In this document: piece by piece, positions 3,305-14,965 of the stretch
How positions within the stretch are numbered: position 1 is the first letter of the stretch
Layout: each line of letters begins with the position of its first letter
Assembly: GCA_963703285.1 (NCBI GenBank)
Contig: OY969807.1
Coordinates: forward strand, 1,728,001-1,792,000
Length of the DNA: 64,000 nt
Source: an uncultured Nitrososphaerota archaeon
GTDB taxonomy: Archaea > Thermoproteota > Nitrososphaeria > Nitrososphaerales > Gagatemarchaeaceae
Reading direction: 5' to 3'
The notes under the pieces: model-generated
What the model was told of the DNA's origin: nothing
What the model saw: the letters and a program-made list of their open reading frames with translations, nothing else
The model's database searches: none
Made by a program: the position numbers and the translations under genes

Positions 3305-4036
3305 CTACCTCAGTGAGACGCCAGTCATCGGGTTGGGCCCAGGTGGCCATGCGGCCTGTTCAGAATCCGTCGCCTTCCCGACCATGATTTCGCAGAGATC
3401 ATTTCCCCTGGCGCAGCACTTGGTCTCACGCACATAGTGTGGGAAACCAAAGACGGTGTCCGCTATCCCCTTGCAGACTCCCGTGATGAAATAGCACTGG
3501 TCCTTCCGCTCGGCGCCTGGATTCCTGCTCCCGCAGAATATGCAGTCACGAACCCTGATGGTGATCTTGGACCCTTTCGCAAGGTCGCCCGTGAGGGAGA
3601 ACTTTCCCCAGCCGGCGGCCAGGCCCAGGTGCTCGAAGTACGATGCGACGTTCTCAGGGTCATCGGTGATGGACCGATAATCGAGGGCGATCGCGACGCC
3701 GTAAGCATTCCCCATCTCTGACAGCAGAGGCGATGCGCCCCTGAGGAAACGGGCGAGCAAGTCCTGTTCAATGAGACTCCACGCATGAGCGTTAATGATG
3801 AAGACGCGTTTGTTGGTGGGGGTAAAGACTATGGCTCCTTTCTGCTCGTCCCACCTGTAGAGCTCGGCCAAGCTTCCGGGTGGGCGCGCGGCGCTCAAGT
3901 GCTTCGCCGGGTTCAGATGGCTCGCAACCAGCAGTTCGATGAGTTCGCCGATAGTGACATTCTGCTCGGCCGCCATTTTGTTCAGCTTCTCGCGGTCTGC
4001 GTCTTCTAGCTCCACCGCGATGGGGATGCGCGTCAT
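3305..4036 (-). CDS. ribbon-helix-helix + V4R domain protein
   Basis: N-terminal IAVELEDADREKLNKMAAEQNVTIGELI (RHH); AGWG, C..F..G...G, RETKCCARGNDLCEI (V4R). Confidence 0.85.
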   Translation of the reverse strand: MTRIPIAVELEDADREKLNKMAAEQNVTIGELIELLVASHLNPAKHLSAARPPGSLAELYRWDEQKGAIVFTPTNKRVFIINAHAWSLIEQDLLARFLRGASPLLSEMGNAYGVAIALDYRSITDDPENVASYFEHLGLAAGWGKFSLTGDLAKGSKITIRVRDCIFCGSRNPGAERKDQCYFITGVCKGIADTVFGFPHYVRETKCCARGNDLCEIMVGKATDSEQAAWPPGPNPMTGVSLR

Positions 4037-5438: not shown

Positions 5439-5477
5439 CGAAAAATTTATATTTGCTATACAACTGATGGTTGTATA
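5439..5477 (+). promoter_or_regulatory. hsp20 promoter (BRE/TATA) with palindromic operator
   Basis: CGAAAAA-TTTATATT (TATA 5446-5453) followed by TATACAAC-N5-GTTGTATA (5457-5477). Confidence 0.7.
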
Positions 5478-5494
5478 CTGAGGTGGTGAATGCG

Positions 5495-6079
5495 ATGGAA
5501 AGCAAAATCACCAAAGCAAGGGACAAAGACAGCATTGTTCCTTCGGAGAGAAGGACGCGGATTGCAACCAGCGACGTGCCATCTTTGGCGACAAGCCTCG
5601 ATAATATCTTCGAGGACTTCCGTACCTCATTCAACGACCTCATGGCACCACTTCTAACCTCGCCACTGTTCACCGAGCCGTTCACACCATCGTTTCTTCC
5701 TTCGAGCCTGATGACCGCGCTACCAGAGACGCTAGCAGGCAGGTCCATGATCAGGTCCATGATCTTCGAGATGATGGACAAAGGGGACCACTACCAGGTC
5801 ATGGCCGAACTTCCGGGCTTCGACAAGGAAGACATCGATGTCCGCGTGGGCGAGGTTGCGCTGGAACTGAGAGCCGAGAAGAACGCGGAGAAGGAGACCG
5901 AGGACGACAAGTCTGAGGCTCGCGAGCGTGCCTACTCTGCGTTCCGCAGGGCCATTCGGTTCCCGGAACATGTCGTCCCGTCCAAGGTCGAAGGAACGAT
6001 GAAGAATGGTGTCCTCAGCCTGAGGATACCGAAGAAGGAGCCCACTTCGACTACTGTGACGAAGGTCTCTCTCAAGTAA
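5495..6079 (+). CDS. hsp20: small heat shock protein Hsp20
   Basis: AELPGFDKEDIDV, FRRAIRFP, MKNGVLSLRIPK alpha-crystallin motifs; GGTGA SD before ATG 5495. Confidence 0.95.
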   Translation: MESKITKARDKDSIVPSERRTRIATSDVPSLATSLDNIFEDFRTSFNDLMAPLLTSPLFTEPFTPSFLPSSLMTALPETLAGRSMIRSMIFEMMDKGDHYQVMAELPGFDKEDIDVRVGEVALELRAEKNAEKETEDDKSEARERAYSAFRRAIRFPEHVVPSKVEGTMKNGVLSLRIPKKEPTSTTVTKVSLK

Positions 6080-6107: not shown

Positions 6108-6395
6108 CGAAAAATCTCCTTCGAGGTGATCAATAATGAGTCGGATGCTCGCGAGGTGGGTCGCGAAACTTCGATCAAAACTGGGGGATCAAGAGGGATA
6201 CTACGTCAAGGGGAGTGGCCGGGTTTACGTACCTAGTGCCTAGACTAAACGAGATACCAACCGTCGTCAGCCAGTACCACGAGCTGGAGGTAGAGAGGGA
6301 GAGATACAAAGCGTGGTTCCGAAGAGTCTGATTCCGACAATTCTCAAGATCGAGGCGAGAACATATCCTTGGCAAAGAATTCCAGGCGATTCAAA

Positions 6396-7685
6396 ATGAG
6401 CATAACCTCAGAGACTATCGCTATTGCGAGGTCGTACACCTCACCAACCACGAATACGACTCTGGCGACAGTCGACAGTTCATCGTATGGGGAAGATCTA
6501 TTGTTTCGTTTTGTAATCATTGAGTCTGGAGAAATGCGATACCTTGGACTCATAGAGAATGTAAGCGTCGAACCCGAGATAGCCAGGCCCAGGAGAGATG
6601 AACCACTTCGAGAGATCTACCCTACCGTGCTGAGGATTAGGAATCTCCTCCATCGTAGAGGCAAAGGTCTCCCATCGATGGTGCGGAACCCGCCTAGACC
6701 TGAAGCAAAAGTGTATTTCGCATCAGATGAGGATCTGGTCAAGTTCTTCCCCCCTCGAGTCTCCTCACCGCCAGTCTATCTGGGCCATCTTAGGGACACC
6801 GGTTACCGTTTACCCCTGGATTCCAGCGTCCTCAGTTTTGCAAATACGGGCATCCTCGCAGGGATCGGTCATGGCAAGTCTCATCTGGCGGCACAGCTAG
6901 TACTCCAGTTGCATCTCGCAGGCAGGAAGGTCGTCGTCGTAGACCCTTCTGGGGAGTGGGCGTCGTTGCTGCGTGAACTGAGCGATAAGCTCGGTGGGGA
7001 GCTGAGATCGCGCATTTCAATATCGATACTCCCCTATTCTCTGGACTCCGAAAACTTGGAGGTGTTCGCAGGGAAAACAATTCAGGAATTCAACTCAGGA
7101 AATCTAACAATAATTGACGCGTCGCTCTTACAGCACCAAGGGTTGGCCGAGGATAAGATAAGAGCGCGATGCGACTTGGTGTATCAAATCCAGCAGAGAC
7201 TTATGGCCGAAGCTACGCGAAGTTATGACAAGGCCAAGTCCCTCTACGCCTACGATGGCTGCGTCGTGCTGGATGAAGCCCACGAGTTCATCCCATCTGT
7301 TCCCAACTTCGAGATACAGAAGAAGCTCAACACACTCTTCTCGATTTCGACAAAGGAATACAGGAAGTACGGCCTGGGCCTTATATTCATAGACCAGTCG
7401 CTCAGAGCGATTCACGAGGACCTGCAGGTCCAGGCGTATCTTCTTGGCATGACCGCAACGCCCGGAGATTTAGAGTTCCTGCGGGCGCGTCTTGGAGGCC
7501 ATGTCGCTGACGCCGTCCAGAGAACACGAAGGGCGGAGAATGTCTCGACGTGGGTTGCATATGGGCTTGCAACACCTTTCCCCGGAATCCCTTGGGAAAT
7601 CGTGTCCTTCTCAGATTCCAATGAAGGTCGGCTTCTCAGCACATCCTTCCTTCATATCAACCGGAAGCAACCTTGTCCGAAATGA
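6396..7685 (+). CDS. HerA/FtsK-superfamily ATPase (HAS-barrel + DUF87-like)
   Basis: RYLGLIENV barrel-like N-terminus, Walker A AGIGHGKS, VVVDPSGEW, Walker B VVLDEAHEF, KEYRKYGLGLIFIDQ. Confidence 0.85.
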   Translation: MSITSETIAIARSYTSPTTNTTLATVDSSSYGEDLLFRFVIIESGEMRYLGLIENVSVEPEIARPRRDEPLREIYPTVLRIRNLLHRRGKGLPSMVRNPPRPEAKVYFASDEDLVKFFPPRVSSPPVYLGHLRDTGYRLPLDSSVLSFANTGILAGIGHGKSHLAAQLVLQLHLAGRKVVVVDPSGEWASLLRELSDKLGGELRSRISISILPYSLDSENLEVFAGKTIQEFNSGNLTIIDASLLQHQGLAEDKIRARCDLVYQIQQRLMAEATRSYDKAKSLYAYDGCVVLDEAHEFIPSVPNFEIQKKLNTLFSISTKEYRKYGLGLIFIDQSLRAIHEDLQVQAYLLGMTATPGDLEFLRARLGGHVADAVQRTRRAENVSTWVAYGLATPFPGIPWEIVSFSDSNEGRLLSTSFLHINRKQPCPK

Positions 7686-7984
7686 GTTAGATGTAACTGG
7701 ACCTCGTTTGAGATTGCTGGCGTTTCACCTGAATCGGATACTCCTGTTCCAGAGACAAGAGTCACATTCCCTCGATTCATCACTGCGTTGACCGTAGCGT
7801 TAATCCGGATCTGAACCTGCGCCGAAGATTGAGAGGCCTGGAGGGACCGATAGTCGAAGGCCGACACGATGGGCGTGACGATTACTCCGAGCACCAGTAA
7901 TGCGGACGAGACTGCGACGACGAAGGAGACACGTAACACAATGTGGTGCTGCCGTAGATTCATTAGCGTTCTCACCACAAGCAT
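7652..7984 (-). CDS. putative secreted/membrane protein, possibly truncated
   Basis: Signal-like hydrophobic stretch VSFVVAVSSALLVLGVIVTPIVSA; 3' end overlaps the HerA gene. Confidence 0.45.
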   Translation of the reverse strand: MLVVRTLMNLRQHHIVLRVSFVVAVSSALLVLGVIVTPIVSAFDYRSLQASQSSAQVQIRINATVNAVMNRGNVTLVSGTGVSDSGETPAISNEVQLHLTHFGQGCFRLI

Positions 7985-8041
7985 ACCAATTGGTTGTGTA
8001 AAAGTCTATGCGTGTTTGCCCGCCCTTCGTCCGCCTCAACC

Positions 8042-8083
8042 TTACGAATTTAGTAACTTCGCCCTGAATAGTGCGCTAATATT
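8042..8083 (+). promoter_or_regulatory. 15-bp palindrome plus TATA upstream of small peptide gene
   Basis: TTACGAATTTAGTAA (8042-8056, 6 of 7 pairs); CTAATATT 8076-8083; ATG at 8104. Confidence 0.55.
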
Positions 8084-8103
8084 CGTCGCGGCACCCCGCG
8101 CCC

Positions 8104-8250
8104 ATGAGAATATCGTTACGGAACAACCGCTACCTCTGGGTTCCCGTAGTCCTCGGGTCAATCGCGATCGTCCTCGCGATTCACGGGCTCCACCCGCTCC
8201 ACGTCGGCGCCCTCGACGGAGACCCGATAGGACCCGGCGCGCCGACCTGA
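8104..8250 (+). CDS. 48-aa secreted peptide precursor (not in ORF track)
   Basis: MRISLRNNRYLWVPVVLGSIAIVLAIHGLHPLHVGALDGDPIGPGAPT*; basic N-region, hydrophobic core, short acidic Gly/Pro tail; GC3-rich codons; stop ends 4 nt from the convergent regulator stop. Confidence 0.7.
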   Translation: MRISLRNNRYLWVPVVLGSIAIVLAIHGLHPLHVGALDGDPIGPGAPT

Positions 8251-8254
8251 CAGG

Positions 8255-9352
8255 CTAAGAGTCATATCGCATCTTAGCGACTGAGAGGATGGAGGCAAGG
8301 GCCGTCTCCGAGTCGAAGACCCACCCTCGCTCATCGGTGAAGCTCTCGTACGGGATGGTATAGTGCATGCTGGTTGGGAGATCGAGGAGATAGGTCTTCC
8401 ACGGCGGGAGCGACATCTCCCCCAATCTGGCGTTCAGGAACTCCAGCGAACGGACTAGCTCCTGGACGGGGATTGCCTGGTCCGCTCTGTAGCTTCCGTC
8501 ATGGGACCCTGCCTCGTACCAAGCAAAGGGGAAGTTGTTGAACAGCAGCCTGACCTTCCCGAGTTGTGACCTGTTCAGGTGACTGAATCCGAAGGACACG
8601 CCGGCGACTCTCGCCGTGTTCGCTCCACGCGCCGGAATCCAGTGCACCCTGTGGTGAGAGATGATCGGCAGGACGTGTTTCCTGTAGTGCCACCTCAGCG
8701 TCACCGCGTTCATCTTGAGCTTCTTGGAAATCTGCGCGAGGTTTCTCAGCGAGCCAGCTTCAAGCTCTTTAATCAGCAGGAGGTCGCTCCGGTCGATTGC
8801 GGGTTTCACGCGTGGCTGGTCCACAGTAATCGGGGAAGGAGGAGCCTCGAGATTGGTCCCGACCTCCTCCCAGTCGATGTTCCAGCGCCCAGAGTCAAAG
8901 TCATAGTAGCGACACTTCAGCTCTGGGTTCCTGGCCCATTCCATCCTGTTGAGCTCCACGGCACTCAGGACTCCTTTATCAACGAGGCCTCTCATGAATG
9001 CCTGGAACTGGTCTTCCACGAGCACTGGGACCGCAAACAACCCGATATGCGCTGGTTCCAGGAGCATCCCGGAGCGATATGTCAGGAACCCCACATTTGC
9101 GAGTCTGTCGAGGATTGAGCTGGCATGCGGCAGGGCGTCGGGGGCGAATCTGATGATCGCAGAGTACCTCTGCAGGCCCAACTCACCCAGGTTGAAGACG
9201 GTCTCGACGCTCAGGTCGAGCTCGGGGAACCTCTTCTTGAGAGTGTACCTTATGGTCTCTTTGGGCATGCCCGTTGCGCGCGAAAGAGCCGCGACGTTCT
9301 TCATCCCGACGCGGTCTATCACCTGAATCAGGTCCGCAATCCTCGCGCTCAA
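8255..9352 (-). CDS. tandem HTH / Lrp-AsnC-like transcription regulator
   Basis: HTH1 NVAALSRATGMPKETIRY; HTH2 IDRSDLLLIKELE..LAQISKKLKMNAVTLRWHY; ferredoxin-like inter-domains. Confidence 0.85.
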   Translation of the reverse strand: MSARIADLIQVIDRVGMKNVAALSRATGMPKETIRYTLKKRFPELDLSVETVFNLGELGLQRYSAIIRFAPDALPHASSILDRLANVGFLTYRSGMLLEPAHIGLFAVPVLVEDQFQAFMRGLVDKGVLSAVELNRMEWARNPELKCRYYDFDSGRWNIDWEEVGTNLEAPPSPITVDQPRVKPAIDRSDLLLIKELEAGSLRNLAQISKKLKMNAVTLRWHYRKHVLPIISHHRVHWIPARGANTARVAGVSFGFSHLNRSQLGKVRLLFNNFPFAWYEAGSHDGSYRADQAIPVQELVRSLEFLNARLGEMSLPPWKTYLLDLPTSMHYTIPYESFTDERGWVFDSETALASILSVAKMRYDS

Positions 9353-9446
9353 CAGGAATGCTATTAACGAATACCCTAATAACGGCTCCTATCTTTGTGA
9401 AAGCTTTATTACCCAGATGTTATCATTTAGGCCATAGGAATTGTGA

Positions 9447-9812
9447 ATGCTGGCCCAATCGATAAGCACAGAGGGCGTCGAGTCGATGGTGAGGAGGTAT
9501 AGGCGGGGCTTGGTTAACTCCCTGCTCGAGTACCTGATACTGGACAACGCCGAAAGGCGAGACGTTTGCGGCTACGACATCATCGCGACGGTCTGCGTGG
9601 ACTTCCAGGTATTGCTCAGCCCGGGTCAGGTGTACCCCGTCATCGATGCGATGGAAGCCGGCGGCCTGATTACGAAGGTGAAGAAGATGAGGAGAGTCTC
9701 GCTAAGTTTGACCCCCCTCGGTTACGTCCTGCTCAAGGCGTGGAGAAACGAACTTGGTCTGATGCAGCTGCGTCTTAACAGCGACCCTCGCCCCATAGAG
9801 CATGTCCACTGA
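9447..9812 (+). CDS. PadR-family transcription regulator
   Basis: GYDII, LSPGQVYPVIDAMEAGGLI, SLTPLG. Confidence 0.85.
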   Translation: MLAQSISTEGVESMVRRYRRGLVNSLLEYLILDNAERRDVCGYDIIATVCVDFQVLLSPGQVYPVIDAMEAGGLITKVKKMRRVSLSLTPLGYVLLKAWRNELGLMQLRLNSDPRPIEHVH

Positions 9813-9839
9813 TTCTAGGCAGGTGTCCGATGAAGTAGC

Positions 9840-10169
9840 ATGATCAATTGGATGCAGTTCAGGATACGTTCGAAGTTGCTGAGCGCCAATCTGCAGTTGG
9901 TCATCCTGTCGGCTCTGCGCTGGCGGCCGATGAGCAATTGGGAGCTGTTGGATGAGATTTACAGCAGAACCGGCTTGATGCCGGAGGATGCAGAGCTCAA
10001 GCGAACCATCCGGCTTCTCGTTGACGGGGGGTTTGTGCAAGTCCCGAGCAAGGATTCACAGTCCCGGATGACCATCAACGCGCGCGGCATCGAACTGCTC
10101 TCAGAGCTGGCGGGGCTTCAGCAAGGGTACTTCGAGTCGACAAAAGCGTGGGATAGAAATCATGGGTGA
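9840..10169 (+). CDS. PadR-like wHTH protein
   Basis: VILSALRWRPMSNWELLDEI..LVDGGFV..INARG. Confidence 0.75.
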   Translation: MINWMQFRIRSKLLSANLQLVILSALRWRPMSNWELLDEIYSRTGLMPEDAELKRTIRLLVDGGFVQVPSKDSQSRMTINARGIELLSELAGLQQGYFESTKAWDRNHG

Positions 10170-10193
10170 ATTCGCTAAGCAATCGCGGATTGG

Positions 10194-10454
10194 TTGAGAA
10201 TGCGGTCTAATCTAACCCGGAGGAAGGAGTTGGCGGAAAGGATGTGCGTCCTCGCTGTGGGCTTGGGCGCGGTCTTGACCCTCGTTGATATCTGGGCCTT
10301 CCTCGCAGGATCCACCGGCCTCTTGCAATGGATGGAGATTCTTACATTTAGTGTCCTTATACCATTGACCGTCGCTGTTGGGGCCCTCGCTCCGGGCAAA
10401 GTTCCGAGGCTCTTTACTCGAGCCATGAGGGCCTTGCGCACCAGGAAATCGTAA
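10194..10454 (+). CDS. small two-TM membrane protein
   Basis: Two hydrophobic segments; co-directional with the PadR genes. Confidence 0.55.
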   Translation: MRMRSNLTRRKELAERMCVLAVGLGAVLTLVDIWAFLAGSTGLLQWMEILTFSVLIPLTVAVGALAPGKVPRLFTRAMRALRTRKS

Positions 10455-10811: not shown

Positions 10812-12467
10812 ATGGAAAGCCGCCGTGAAGCAGCAGCCGTGTCCATCACGCTCTTCTTCCTCCTGCTCTCCCCCTTGTTCTCCGCAGCCTCTCCCGCCGC
10901 TTCTTCCCCCTTACCCCTTCCCTACCAGCTGGGCGTCCTCCTGTCCGGGTATTACGAGCCGATCCAGCTTAATGCGCCAGCGACGCCGACGACGGTCTAC
11001 TTCGCCGTGAGCAGCAACGCCACCCTCTCGACCGCTCTCATGACCAACTCGCAGGCGACCTCCTTCGGCTATGGAACGACGGACCTTGCCGACTCGCTCT
11101 ACGATGTGAACAGTAGCAGCGCCACGCACTCCATGAGCGTCTCTGAGGGGATCTACTGGCTCGTCTTCTTCGCCTACGGCTACAGCGCGAACGTCAGCTT
11201 CGCTCTCTCGACCGTTCCCACCAGCCCGTACGTCTACTACCCCCTCACCGCGCCCGAGCCCTCCGGGGTCGCTTCCTTCGGTCTGTACAACGACTCCGGG
11301 GTGGTGACATCGTACACGGTCGAGAGCAGCGACGTCCTCGGCGTCGCGGACATAGCCTCGCTCCAGGCCTACAACGGGTCGGCAGCGCGCTACGACGATG
11401 CGGTCTCGGGTGCCTCTCTCCAGCTGAACTCAATCCTCGTGGTCAACGAGGCGGGAGGCCGGCAGCAGAACTACTGGGTTCAGGACATTCCCGATTTCGT
11501 GACCGCAACTTCGACGGTCTCCTGGGCCGACAACATCTGGAACGCCAGCGTCTCGGGCTTCCTGAGCAACGGCACCGTCACCTCGACCGACGGCGGGTAC
11601 GTCTACTCGTTCCCGAACGGCCCCAGCACCGGGTACTACTACTCCTACCAGTCCTCGAACACCACGTATCGGCTGCCCCTGGATTTGGCCCTAATCATGA
11701 GCGAGACCGCCGTCCAAGGAGTCGGTGTCCGGGTCCAGATTGGCGTCCAGGAGATCGCCAGCGGGACCGCGGCTGCCAAGTCGATCGACTGGTTCGACAA
11801 CGCAACGATCAGCGACCCCACTGTGCAGAGCGCGTACTTCTACGTCGCGGGCAACGCGGCCGCGCCGAACGGGGAGTTCTATGACTCCGAGTTCGTCTTC
11901 GGCGGCGAGGGCAACGGAGAGTCCACCACCTTCACGCAGCTCACCGCTTCGCTCGGGCTGTTCTACGGGAATTCGGTCACCGGCGCCCAGACCGCCTACC
12001 CCTCCCTCTACAGCTTCGGAGGCAACACGGCCGAGGGCGCGTACAATCTGCACATCTCCTACGCGGGCGACGGGTTCTCCAGCGTATCGGTGGGCAGCCC
12101 CAACTATGTCTACCTGGGGCGGGCGTCAGGGTCCTATACGCTGCCTCCCGCAGGAACGCAGACGACGAGCTCCACGACGAGCTCGAGTACGGCGTCGACC
12201 ACGACCACAGTGACGAGCACGCTGCTGCTCACGACGACCGCGACGACGACCGCGACGCAAACCGTGACCGGACCGGTCACGACCGTGACCAACACCGCGA
12301 CATCGACGCAGACCGTAACCTCAGTAACGACGCAGCTTGGCCCAACAACAACGACGCAGACCTCCTCGTCTGTGCCGACATGGGCCTATGCAATCATGAT
12401 ACTCCTCCTGATAGCCGGACTTGCTGTAGGTTACGCCATCAAGAGACCATCAGTCAGCAAGCCTTAG
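10812..12467 (+). CDS. thermopsin-family (peptidase A5) protease, secreted, Thr-rich stalk and C-terminal TM anchor
   Basis: PSGVASFGL, GASLQLN, YWVQD, DNIWN, DSEFVFGGEGNG, NTAE motifs; signal peptide; Thr-rich linker; WAYAIMILLLIAGLAVGYAIKR. Confidence 0.9.
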   Translation: MESRREAAAVSITLFFLLLSPLFSAASPAASSPLPLPYQLGVLLSGYYEPIQLNAPATPTTVYFAVSSNATLSTALMTNSQATSFGYGTTDLADSLYDVNSSSATHSMSVSEGIYWLVFFAYGYSANVSFALSTVPTSPYVYYPLTAPEPSGVASFGLYNDSGVVTSYTVESSDVLGVADIASLQAYNGSAARYDDAVSGASLQLNSILVVNEAGGRQQNYWVQDIPDFVTATSTVSWADNIWNASVSGFLSNGTVTSTDGGYVYSFPNGPSTGYYYSYQSSNTTYRLPLDLALIMSETAVQGVGVRVQIGVQEIASGTAAAKSIDWFDNATISDPTVQSAYFYVAGNAAAPNGEFYDSEFVFGGEGNGESTTFTQLTASLGLFYGNSVTGAQTAYPSLYSFGGNTAEGAYNLHISYAGDGFSSVSVGSPNYVYLGRASGSYTLPPAGTQTTSSTTSSSTASTTTTVTSTLLLTTTATTTATQTVTGPVTTVTNTATSTQTVTSVTTQLGPTTTTQTSSSVPTWAYAIMILLLIAGLAVGYAIKRPSVSKP

Positions 12468-13244: not shown

Positions 13245-14447
13245 TTAACTTGCGGTTTCTAGACCTTCCTTTTTCGTCGGGCTTCCATTCTGTTTGGAGA
13301 CAACATTTCGGAGGGTTCGTTCGAAATTCTTCAGGACCTTTTGCTTGTCGTACCTCCACCTCTTCAGCTTCGGGTCGTACAAATCCTGCGGCAGGGTGTA
13401 GTTCCGGTCTTGGCGCTGGTCGAAAGTGAGGACCTCTAGCCGCTCGGCGTGGTGACCCAGGAGGTCCCTGATGAACACGAGCGTCTCGTTCCAGAATTCC
13501 ACCGGCGCGTAGAAGTCCGCTATGAATGACGTGCCTCCCCCTGTGACGGCCCAGATGAAGGGAAGTCTCTGCAGCTCCCTACTGATGAACTTCGCTTCCT
13601 CTGGTGTCACGTCCTTGACTATGAGCGAGATGAAGGCGTACGCGTGGCTTCGCGTCAATTGTAACGCTGCGTCGTTGAATTCCCTGGAGAACCACCTAAT
13701 CCGGTAGCCGGAGATCAGCTTCCTGTCTCGAACGTGGGCGTAGTGGAGGAGGGCGCTCTTGTACGAGATCTTCAGCTTCCTCGCGGTCTCGGCCACCGAG
13801 GCTCCGCCCGGCATCTGGAGCTCCGACGCGACCAGTATGTCGAGCATGTCGAACTTGGAAAGCTGGTGCAGCGACGGATGGTCCAGATCGGGGGGCGGGT
13901 CCTTCAGCGAGTTCCACTGAACTTCCCATTTCGAACTGACGAAGTCGTACTGTTCGGCGTGCATCGGGACCCTGTATATCCAGCCTACGTCGAACACCTC
14001 CACATCCGTGAAGAAGCGCAGCTTGTCCCTCAGGTCGCGCAGGGTCGACGCGAACTCCTCCTTCACATCCTCGGGGACCTCCGCGGAGACCAGCAGCCTG
14101 TCGTCCGGGATTGTCCGCTGGTAATGAACGACGGGCCAGTAGTCAGCCATCGCCATGAAGATCTGGTGAATGTATGGTCTGTACTCTTCCCTCACACGTG
14201 CCAGCGCGGTCAGCCTCTGTAGACCGAATCTGCCGTAGGCGGCGTCACCGATGATATTCATGCCCTTGTCTATTATCCTCTTCTTGTACAGGTACCTTGC
14301 CGTCTCCTTGAACAATCCTACCCTTCTCGAGATCTCATTGATGTTGGGACCCAGCTCTTCTATCCCTCTGACCAGGGCGGCCATCCGAGCCTTCTCGTCC
14401 TCGGATTTCGCTGCTCTCAGTCTCAGGACTTCACTGGATTTGCTCAT
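13245..14447 (-). CDS. tandem HTH / Lrp-AsnC-like transcription regulator (paralog of 8255-9352)
   Basis: GPNINEISRRVGLFKETARY; GLQR; YDFVSSKWEVQW; FDMLDILVASELQ..VAETARKLKISYKSALLHY; same motif order as paralog. Confidence 0.85.
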   Translation of the reverse strand: MSKSSEVLRLRAAKSEDEKARMAALVRGIEELGPNINEISRRVGLFKETARYLYKKRIIDKGMNIIGDAAYGRFGLQRLTALARVREEYRPYIHQIFMAMADYWPVVHYQRTIPDDRLLVSAEVPEDVKEEFASTLRDLRDKLRFFTDVEVFDVGWIYRVPMHAEQYDFVSSKWEVQWNSLKDPPPDLDHPSLHQLSKFDMLDILVASELQMPGGASVAETARKLKISYKSALLHYAHVRDRKLISGYRIRWFSREFNDAALQLTRSHAYAFISLIVKDVTPEEAKFISRELQRLPFIWAVTGGGTSFIADFYAPVEFWNETLVFIRDLLGHHAERLEVLTFDQRQDRNYTLPQDLYDPKLKRWRYDKQKVLKNFERTLRNVVSKQNGSPTKKEGLETAS

Positions 14448-14601: not shown

Positions 14602-14645
14602 GCATAACCTTTATGCCATTTAGCTTATGCAGATAGGCTTATATC
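14602..14645 (+). promoter_or_regulatory. 15-bp palindrome, extra half-site and TATA upstream of secreted peptide gene
   Basis: GCATAA-CCT-TTATGC (14602-14616), TTATGC (14625-14630), CTTATATC (14638-14645), ATG 14669. Confidence 0.65.
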
Positions 14646-14668
14646 CCGTAGGACGTCATGCTACGGCC

Positions 14669-14965
14669 ATGAACAAGACAGCTATCGCGGCTCTATTTGC
14701 GGCGGCAATGCTTATCCTGGTTCCAGCTGCGGCTCTCACTGCCTCGGCTGACGACGGTGCTGCTGGAGGTGGTGGAACCGGGGGCGGTGGTTCAACAAGT
14801 GGCGGTGTCACCGTAACAAGCACGGAAGGAGCCAGTCCGCCATCCTGCTACGTGCTATTGGTACTTGCTTGGGGTTGGGGAACTATAGGCCCCTTCATCG
14901 TCTACGGTCTGTTCCCTACTTTCGAGCAGGTGTGCACTTCATACCCCCCGCCGAACGTCGTCTAG
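14669..14965 (+). CDS. 98-aa secreted peptide: signal peptide, Gly/Ser linker, two-Cys hydrophobic C-terminal domain
   Basis: MNKTAIAALFAAAMLILVPAAALTASA|DDGAAGGGG..SCYVLLVLAWGWGTIGPFIVYGLFPTFEQVCTSYPPPNVV. Confidence 0.75.
   Translation: MNKTAIAALFAAAMLILVPAAALTASADDGAAGGGGTGGGGSTSGGVTVTSTEGASPPSCYVLLVLAWGWGTIGPFIVYGLFPTFEQVCTSYPPPNVV

Follow-up and report, generated by a model that had tools for sequence, protein, structure and literature searches.

A strongly selected 48-codon gene beside a tandem Lrp/AsnC-fold regulator: a candidate peptide-signal system in Nitrososphaerota

We analysed a 64,000-nucleotide stretch of DNA, hereafter the window, from an uncultured Nitrososphaerota archaeon of the family Gagatemarchaeaceae (contig OY969807.1). 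Our subject is a short open reading frame (ORF) at positions 8104 to 8250, convergent with a gene for a 365-amino-acid (aa) protein that is a predicted regulator. Judged from sequence comparison, the ORF is a real but unannotated small gene, which is under strong selection and represents a new family. Its 48-aa product ends in a Gly/Pro-rich decapeptide, GDPIGPGAPT, and orthologues carry one to three copies of this unit. The gene is part of a conserved four-gene cassette, which we regard as a credible, but unproven, candidate for an archaeal peptide-signal system.

The original prediction was of a hidden propeptide, and the ORF it described, with its 48-aa product, is borne out by the sequence. 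The ORF starts with ATG, ends with TGA at 8248-8250 and encodes MRISLRNNRYLWVPVVLGSIAIVLAIHGLHPLHVGALDGDPIGPGAPT. Three Arg residues are found among the first nine, followed by a hydrophobic stretch (approximately residues 11-29), by HPLHVGA and then by LDGDPIGPGAPT. The stop codon lies 4 nucleotides (nt) from that of the regulator gene, as claimed (compare TGA at 8248-8250 with CTA at 8255-8257, in the reverse-strand gene 8255..9352). Scans of the 48-aa protein against Pfam and NCBIfam gave no match. Note that the length of the ORF is unremarkable by itself; a 5.5-kb stretch here contains 65 ORFs that reach 30 aa or more. Furthermore, with an end so close to the regulator stop, the region might be conserved for the 3' end of the regulator gene. 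Both facts would suit an ORF present by chance where non-coding DNA is conserved, be it the 3' untranslated region or antisense of the regulator, or an RNA element. The substitution pattern, being specific to one frame, argues otherwise. The genome has two copies of the small ORF, which differ at 20 nt over 14 codons (codons 7-27) with no insertions or deletions. Six of these codons have synonymous changes and eight have conservative ones (for example I/V, V/L, L/A and S/V). Codon positions 3, 1 and 2 changed 10, 7 and 3 times, respectively, and the other reading frames of the region pick up radical changes. Similarly, across the six closest sequences, the proportions of synonymous (pS) and non-synonymous (pN) differences are 0.36 and 0.17 in the ORF's own frame. 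The equivalent values for the two alternative frames are pS 0.23 and 0.19, and pN 0.21 and 0.23. An N-terminal MRISLR motif is present in all six close orthologues (one has Leu for Ile). Hence, conservation of the small ORF, together with purifying selection confined to its own frame, shows that it is not a chance ORF. A 129-aa ORF that overlaps in another frame (7869..8258) was rejected; its ends are not conserved (it is 89 aa in the second copy) and there is no purifying selection in its frame. As a further point against an RNA element, an Rfam scan of positions 7700-8500, at E values up to 1, gave no match.

Selection is most evident in distant orthologues, found with regulators 44-46% identical to that in the window. 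Here, the small protein is 60-82 aa long and has a similar N-terminus, followed by two or three tandem decapeptides. These are homologous to the last ten residues of the 48-aa protein. One example reads ...HVAGDPGGPGAPN-SHMGVS-GDPGGPGAPN-FRMVVS-GDPGGPGAPN. Comparing units within the same protein (15 pairs, from seven multi-unit genes) revealed 85 synonymous and no non-synonymous differences (pS 0.67, pN 0), so that synonymous sites are near saturation and the amino acids are identical. The 6-residue linkers before each unit vary freely (pS 0.73, pN 0.48). Hence, the frame is translated and the ten-residue unit is the selected product, a pattern that also speaks strongly against a chance ORF. 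In support of the original prediction, the short C-terminal Gly/Pro peptide is what selection protects. Conversely, a 12-residue product, as proposed, does not hold across the family, in which the conserved unit consists of the final 10 residues.

Multiple units occur in 30 of 48 distinct family proteins and are all identical in 28 of these. In the two exceptions, one position differs (S/P/S). The family as a whole has 19 different decapeptides, which vary by lineage. Every unit starts G-D-P and has Pro as the second-to-last residue. Thus, all copies in a given precursor stay alike, even as lineages move apart. Internal and terminal copies also co-vary at the final residue of the unit (..GGPD twice, ..GEPS twice, ..GGPT twice). 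Therefore, the unit boundary is exactly at the protein C-terminus. An AlphaFold2 model of an 80-aa orthologue, built from an alignment of 8 rows, has a helix at residues 3-35 and a tail (residues 33-80) with pLDDT below 50 and no secondary structure. This agrees with the view that the product is too short to fold, since the model contains only an N-terminal helix and an unstructured tail. Looking up the same orthologue in the ESM Atlas gave no lead; the best score was 0.80, to unnamed bacterial clusters.

Using the regulator to fetch related loci, from a collection of species-representative genomes, gave 17 loci. In 16, the small ORF is intact, with start and stop codons kept, and convergent to the regulator gene. 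The exception is locus L042, where the small ORF has two frameshifts and the regulator is fragmented. In that locus (positions 3500-4000) the small ORF is split over three frames and the regulator is broken into four or more pieces, so that either the cassette is decaying or a long-read assembly has introduced indel errors. A peptide search of 40 relatives gave open, full-length matches in genomes of the same genus, each convergent to a regulator orthologue. When a 17-member profile was run against 1.84 billion representative proteins, 16 matches were returned at E values up to 0.001. Of these, 15 belong to the family (43-77 aa), and the other, a protein of 2624 aa, we take as spurious. A word-indexed search found 21 relatives, either labelled hypothetical proteins or nameless at source. 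That homologues have been called as proteins, by gene callers of several sources, is also difficult to reconcile with a chance ORF. The profile matches 13 of the 23 genomes of the genus, many of which are incomplete, and two of 80 further genomes in an even sample of the order. With purifying selection specific to the frame, and the frame conserved at orthologous loci, we conclude that the predicted small gene is genuine. A chance ORF can be practically excluded.

The prediction also tied the gene to the neighbouring regulator. This link is confirmed by the convergent arrangement described above, and by the presence of the complete four-gene cassette at 19 of 19 loci. Besides the peptide and regulator genes, the cassette has genes encoding proteins of 121 aa and 109 aa (Table 1). 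Note that the L032 orthologue of the 121-aa protein scores 34.8 bits against PadR, which is above the cut-off. The genome is a single 2.25-Mb contig and contains the cassette twice; by blastn, the copies are 97.8% identical over 2241 nt. The duplicated block consists of exactly the peptide, regulator, 121-aa and 109-aa genes. All differences between copies sit at the two edges, which are 10-20% diverged, and there are none between window positions 8200 and 10149. The left edge of the divergence falls within the small ORF. This pattern suggests an old duplication, the core of which was recently homogenised, perhaps by gene conversion.

The regulator was modelled with AlphaFold2 (mean pLDDT 90.1, pTM 0.88). 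The predicted structure has two modules, each with a helix-turn-helix (HTH) and a beta-alpha-beta-beta-alpha-beta RAM-like domain. Hence, the arrangement found in Lrp/AsnC proteins, of an N-terminal HTH followed by a RAM domain, occurs twice in the model. In Foldseek searches, the best full-length match was the fused, two-module siroheme decarboxylase NirDL (4ch7, E 8.9e-10, TMq 0.53). Single-module matches to archaeal and bacterial Lrp/AsnC regulators (ST1022, PH0140, LrpC and AsnC) came next, and Lrp/AsnC structures were matched at probability 1.00. Sequence similarity is marginal. Nothing in Pfam matched the 365-aa protein above threshold, only HTH_43 at E 0.018, which is below the cut-off, and NCBIfam gave no match. 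PF13404 is precomputed on some homologues and, in a profile search against PDB sequences, the second HTH was marginally Lrp-like (E 0.04-0.6). No NirDL or Ahb chain was among the matches of that search, at E values up to 1, and identity in the structural alignment is 10-11%. There are ten matches to the 365-aa protein in its own genome, so a housekeeping enzyme is unlikely. We found 66 homologues; the few source names are Nitrososphaerales or Thaumarchaeota, and one is Candidatus Gagatemarchaeum stordalenia.

A conserved element lies upstream of the small gene and can be aligned, without gaps, at 17 of 17 loci (Table 1). The consensus over these sequences is TTAGTAAC-n3-G-n-CCTG-n-ATA-n-T-nn-G-n-TAATA, and 16 of 42 columns are invariant. 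The TAATA box begins at 8077 in the window, 27 nt ahead of the ATG. This distance is 27-28 nt at 14 of the 17 loci, and counting from the second ATG brings locus L037 into agreement. Archaeal TATA boxes are found approximately 26 nt before the site of transcription initiation. Hence, the spacing suggests that transcripts of the small gene are probably leaderless. No RNA sequencing run was listed for window positions 7600-10300, although runs may exist beyond that listing. Additional conserved bases, upstream of the TATA box, look operator-like. In its own genome, the element is found only at the two copies of the cassette.

Table 1. Positions of features discussed in the text (window coordinates unless stated otherwise).
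Feature	Position	Strand	Basis or remark
Small gene for the putative 48-aa pre-peptide	8104..8250 (stop codon included)	+	Sequence, conservation, frame-specific selection
Basic N-region (residues 1-10, 3 Arg) and hydrophobic segment (residues 11-29)	8104..8190	+	Sequence; putative export signal or membrane anchor
C-terminal decapeptide unit GDPIGPGAPT (residues 39-48)	8218..8247	+	Strongest selection; proposed released peptide
Conserved promoter/operator-like element TTAGTAAC-N-CTGAATAGTG-CG-CTAATATT	8050..8083	+	Gap-free alignment, 17/17 loci
365-aa tandem Lrp/AsnC-fold protein, convergent with the small gene	8255..9352	-	AlphaFold2, Foldseek
121-aa PadR-like winged-helix protein, divergent from the regulator	9447..9812	+	PadR 24.2 bits (cut-off 27); 19/19 loci
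109-aa second small protein of the cassette	9840..10169	+	19/19 loci; no Pfam or NCBIfam match
2.24-kb four-gene cassette	8039..10277		Twice in genome; second copy at genome 2160475-2162713
Second-subfamily ORFs (approximately 41 aa)	Genome 853903-854031 and 266285-266410	- and -	Each convergent to a regulator paralogue

We propose that the small gene encodes an exported and processed pre-peptide. The C-terminal unit would be released, and serve as a lineage-specific extracellular signal coupled to the regulators of the cassette. We give this proposal an even chance of being correct. Transcription would begin from the TATA-type promoter, conserved 27 nt upstream of the ATG, and produce a leaderless mRNA. 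The distribution of charge suggests that, in the protein made, the basic N-terminus would be cytoplasmic, the hydrophobic segment would sit in the membrane and the last 19 or so residues would be outside. GDPIGPGAPT would be the functional unit, as indicated by selection on the one to three tandem copies in orthologues. It could then be freed by signal peptidase, another protease acting at the linkers, or both. Finally, the free peptide may act as a diffusible, lineage-specific signal, with production, perception, or both, coupled to the tandem Lrp/AsnC-type regulator and the two small PadR-like proteins. Re-import of the peptide, as in RRNPP systems, is a possible addition to this last step.

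Signal peptidases follow the -3/-1 rule, which calls for a small residue at -1 and a small or aliphatic residue at -3. In the 48-aa protein, V34 and A36 fit this rule, and V-G-A is two residues upstream of the unit. In four distant homologues, A-x-A immediately precedes the unit (for example ..AAFA|DPGGPMPW, ..PAFA|GD.. and ..PVFA|GD..). The genome also has three matches above cut-off to archaeal signal peptidase I, and four to SBP_bac_5, which is of the oligopeptide-binding type. For this archaeal family, extracellular peptidases and oligopeptide ABC transporters are reported in the part of the literature account that deals with them (PMC10640624). With respect to export, the A-x-A sites, signal peptidases, oligopeptide-binding proteins and reported transporters are permissive only. 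A different type of signal peptide does not fit. Archaeal class III signal peptides, like those of type IV pilins, have a short charged N-terminus, and Gly or Ala at -1 right before the hydrophobic stretch. The 48-aa protein has no Gly or Ala at this point (..RNNRY|LWVP..) and did not match any pilin or archaellin family.

Several observations weigh against release of a signal peptide. Only 14 of the 48 family proteins have residues compatible with the -3/-1 rule right before the first unit and, in the window's own protein, the residue at -1 to the unit is Asp. Hence, the V-G-A cleavage site of the original prediction is not general in the family, and a general rule of cleavage directly before the unit was rejected. 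The length of the hydrophobic segment, approximately 19 residues, would suffice for a stable membrane anchor, and the cassette has no dedicated protease or transporter. The protein in the window has a single unit, so that the multi-copy argument is borrowed from orthologues with regulators 44-46% identical. The RAM domains of Lrp/AsnC proteins bind small ligands, amino acids among them, and are not known to bind peptides. A complex prediction, for the L032 regulator with residues 33-80 of its peptide, scored 0.01 against a mark of 0.32 with controls not folded, and counts neither for nor against binding. A maximum-likelihood tree, of 15 regulators with one paralogue as the outgroup, groups regulators by peptide type, and sister regulators share a unit (L030 with L038, and L032 with L037). 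This co-diversification does not prove interaction, since it is expected of any neighbours that are inherited together.

A last point of this kind comes from a second peptide subfamily. The prediction was that paralogous peptides would be found near other copies of the regulator. Consistent with this, peptide and regulator pairs are present in the genome, the genus and the order. In the window's own genome, two other regulator paralogues have convergent ORFs of approximately 41 aa. These begin MT.DEK.RYG, have a hydrophobic segment followed by H..P.., and are Gly-rich at the end. The other six paralogues have no convergent small hydrophobic ORF within 700 nt. This second subfamily was detected in 23 of 23 genomes of the genus, and is convergent to a regulator paralogue at 12 of 12 loci. 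Its N-terminal region (MTLDEKVRYG...), presumably cytoplasmic, is better conserved than the tail. This suits a membrane-resident partner protein at least as well as it would suit a signal peptide that is disposed of.

Hence, the main rival to our proposal is that the protein is not cleaved, given that cleavage sites fit in 14 of 48 proteins, an anchor is possible, the N-terminus of the second subfamily is conserved and no protease or transporter is present. In this scenario, the small protein would be a single-pass membrane protein, with the N-terminus inside and the Gly/Pro tail outside, acting as a partner or co-sensor of the regulator, or as a surface-displayed, potentially multivalent, ligand. 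The tail might bind something extracellular, with the short cytoplasmic N-terminus contacting the regulator. Consistent with this, the orthologue modelled above is predicted to be one long helix from residue 3 to 35. In addition, N-terminal motifs are kept within each subfamily (MRISLR in 6 of 6, and MTLDEKVRYG) and there is strict synteny with a cytoplasmic protein of DNA-binding type. However, the cytoplasmic stub is only about 10 residues long and is not conserved between subfamilies. Furthermore, one to three identical decapeptides, with variable linkers, and a unit that ends at the C-terminus, are the hallmark of a multi-copy precursor rather than of a sensor. The four homologues with a canonical A-x-A site right before the unit are also hard to reconcile with an uncleaved protein. 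We consider this alternative rather unlikely, though serious.

The repeats raise another possibility: the product may be the precursor of a bioactive peptide that is exported but has no signalling role. This could be antimicrobial, or resemble peptides that are ribosomally synthesised and then modified post-translationally (RiPPs), with one to three cores and with neighbouring genes that only control expression. Multi-core RiPP precursors are known, such as cyanobactin PatE and the fungal dikaritins; multi-copy peptide precursors include yeast alpha-factor and those of plants and animals. Repeated identical cores and variable spacers are a shared feature, and the sequence of the unit differs by lineage. 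Units start G-D-P, with a penultimate Pro, and extracellular enzymes of the prolyl-oligopeptidase family S09X are among those reported, in the part of the account concerned, for the archaeal family (PMC10640624). Nevertheless, no protease, transporter, modifying enzyme or immunity gene is part of the conserved cassette. The unit itself has no Cys, no Ser/Thr clusters and no other usual targets for modification, and the leader is hydrophobic rather than of a kind that binds a recognition element. Having several paralogous peptide and regulator pairs per genome also fits signalling channels better than toxins. We think that a non-signal peptide of this type is quite improbable.

Returning to the proposed signal, the regulator and its convergent partner extend beyond the genus. 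The regulator profile matches 25 of 81 genomes sampled from the order. There was no match in five families of the order that are suspected, from the size and number of their genomes, to be ammonia oxidisers. In other families, a convergent small hydrophobic ORF is present at 12 of 28 regulator loci that have room downstream, compared to 1 of 28 in a same-strand control. Tails of these ORFs include SPLDEVGGGVSI and LPLEEVGGALPL. The scan used only ATG starts and a hydrophobicity threshold and, because this filter is crude, 12 of 28 is a lower bound. In its widest form, our proposal would be of a Sec-exported precursor containing one to three Gly/Pro decapeptides, sensed by the RAM domains of a tandem Lrp/AsnC-fold transcription factor, which would be a new class of receptor. 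There would be several such channels per genome, and the module would be spread across lineages of the order that probably do not oxidise ammonia. We advance this wider version tentatively; it is possible, and we rather doubt that all of it will hold.

Other features were noted at, or close to, the cassette. Separating the divergent regulator and PadR-like genes is a region of 94 nt (9353-9446), well conserved at the five closest loci (GGTAATAAA..TTTCAC..AA and TTATTAGGGTATTCGTTAA). It probably contains two back-to-back promoters, different from the element of the peptide gene. Approximately 500 nt past the cassette, on the forward strand, is a gene for a 551-aa acid protease of the thermopsin family (10812-12467; PF05317, E 8.4e-57), with a Ser/Thr-rich stalk and a hydrophobic C-terminal end. 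This was rejected as a processing protease linked to the cassette, being outside the duplicated block and not beside the cassette at other loci. Upstream of the cassette are genes with no evident link to it: a HerA/DUF87-type ATPase (6369-7685, forward strand, 34 bits), an Hsp20 protein (5471-6079, forward strand, 73 bits) and a V4R-domain protein (3305-4036, reverse strand, 38 bits). A further regulator paralogue is encoded in the window at 13245-14447, on the reverse strand (match at genome 1741329-1742390). Divergent from this is a 112-aa ORF (14627-14965, forward strand), which has a signal-peptide-like start (..AAALTASA) and then a Gly-rich stretch.

At the distant loci L030-L034, L036 and L043, a conserved 164-aa protein is encoded upstream of the peptide gene (about 3950-5300 in L032 coordinates). 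The same loci have a 262-aa multi-pass membrane protein with a weak match to MASE3 (28 bits, below the cut-off), and L032 adds a DUF835-like protein. The MASE3-like and DUF835-like proteins adjoin the peptide gene at 6-7 distant loci, where they could provide a membrane sensor. They were rejected as universal parts of the cassette, since these queries did not find them in the window's own genome.

Archaeal signals named in a 2025 paper on Haloferax quorum sensing are a carboxylated acyl-homoserine lactone, diketopiperazines and an unidentified small molecule; no peptide is among those named in the section concerned (PMC12240190). Full-text literature searches, at the level of listings and abstracts, gave nothing on an archaeal peptide pheromone, a peptide partner for Lrp/AsnC proteins or this family. 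If the signal proposal is correct, archaea came to peptide signalling independently, using a receptor of a different fold. Furthermore, abundant, apparently uncultured, archaea of acid soils would communicate in a code that can be read, and of which the unit has 19 or more variants. Should the small protein instead be an uncleaved partner in the membrane, it would still be a widespread and undescribed small protein that partners a large regulator family of archaea. In either case, the family illustrates how firmly synonymous divergence, between internal repeats, can validate an unannotated gene of 48 codons.

How does the cassette compare with known systems? Multi-core RiPP precursors, such as those of cyanobactins, similarly have repeated identical cores with variable flanks; units are repeated in 30 of the 48 family proteins. 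They differ in having a soluble leader, rather than a hydrophobic N-terminal part, and the window's protein has a single unit. No RiPP modifying enzyme, or recognition-element protein, is found alongside in the conserved cassette. Multi-copy secreted precursors of eukaryotes, including yeast alpha-factor (MFalpha1), plant CLE and cyclotide precursors, are another parallel. Shared features are a putative N-terminal export signal, tandem identical short peptides, variable spacers and a copy number that varies. In addition, copies in one precursor change together, and the peptides can be rich in Pro and Gly (CLE). Conversely, there is no sequence relationship, the host is a prokaryote and the gene in the window has only one unit. 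On the regulator side, the 365-aa protein resembles Lrp/AsnC (feast/famine) regulators and NirDL/AhbAB, having two modules of HTH and RAM-like domain in its predicted fold. It is unlike them in its marginal sequence similarity, its ten matches per genome and its coupling to small, putatively exported, peptides.

The closest comparison made by the original prediction was with Phr and PapR. According to the part of one survey that defines them, RRNPP pairs of Firmicutes and phages (Rap-Phr, PlcR-PapR, NprR-NprX and AimR-AimP) combine a propeptide of 10-100 aa, carrying a signal for export by Sec (or PptAB), with an adjoining TPR receptor of 250-500 aa (PMC10075063). The propeptide studied here is of suitable size (48 aa, with family members of 40-82 aa), as is the candidate receptor (365 aa). 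The genes are also adjacent, with stops 4 nt apart, and are neighbours at 16 of 17 related loci. As in RRNPP systems, a basic N-terminus precedes a hydrophobic region and a short C-terminal part, and the gene lies beside that of a cytoplasmic HTH protein. A genome can have several paralogous pairs, and the peptides differ between lineages. Other features are different. Here, the genes are those of an archaeon and converge, and two further small genes, PadR-like, belong to the cassette. Orthologues can have two or three tandem copies of the unit. No TPR family was detected in the 365-aa protein by the Pfam scan, the predicted fold being tandem HTH and RAM-like, and no homology to any RRNPP component was found. 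Hence, the likeness to Phr and PapR stands for size and adjacency, and fails for membership of the RRNPP group, the regulator having a tandem Lrp/AsnC fold rather than TPRs. Since size and adjacency agree, and the TPR receptor does not, the pair may work like an RRNPP pair without being one. We propose that the logic of a Phr/PapR-type pair could have been assembled independently, in these archaea, from other parts.

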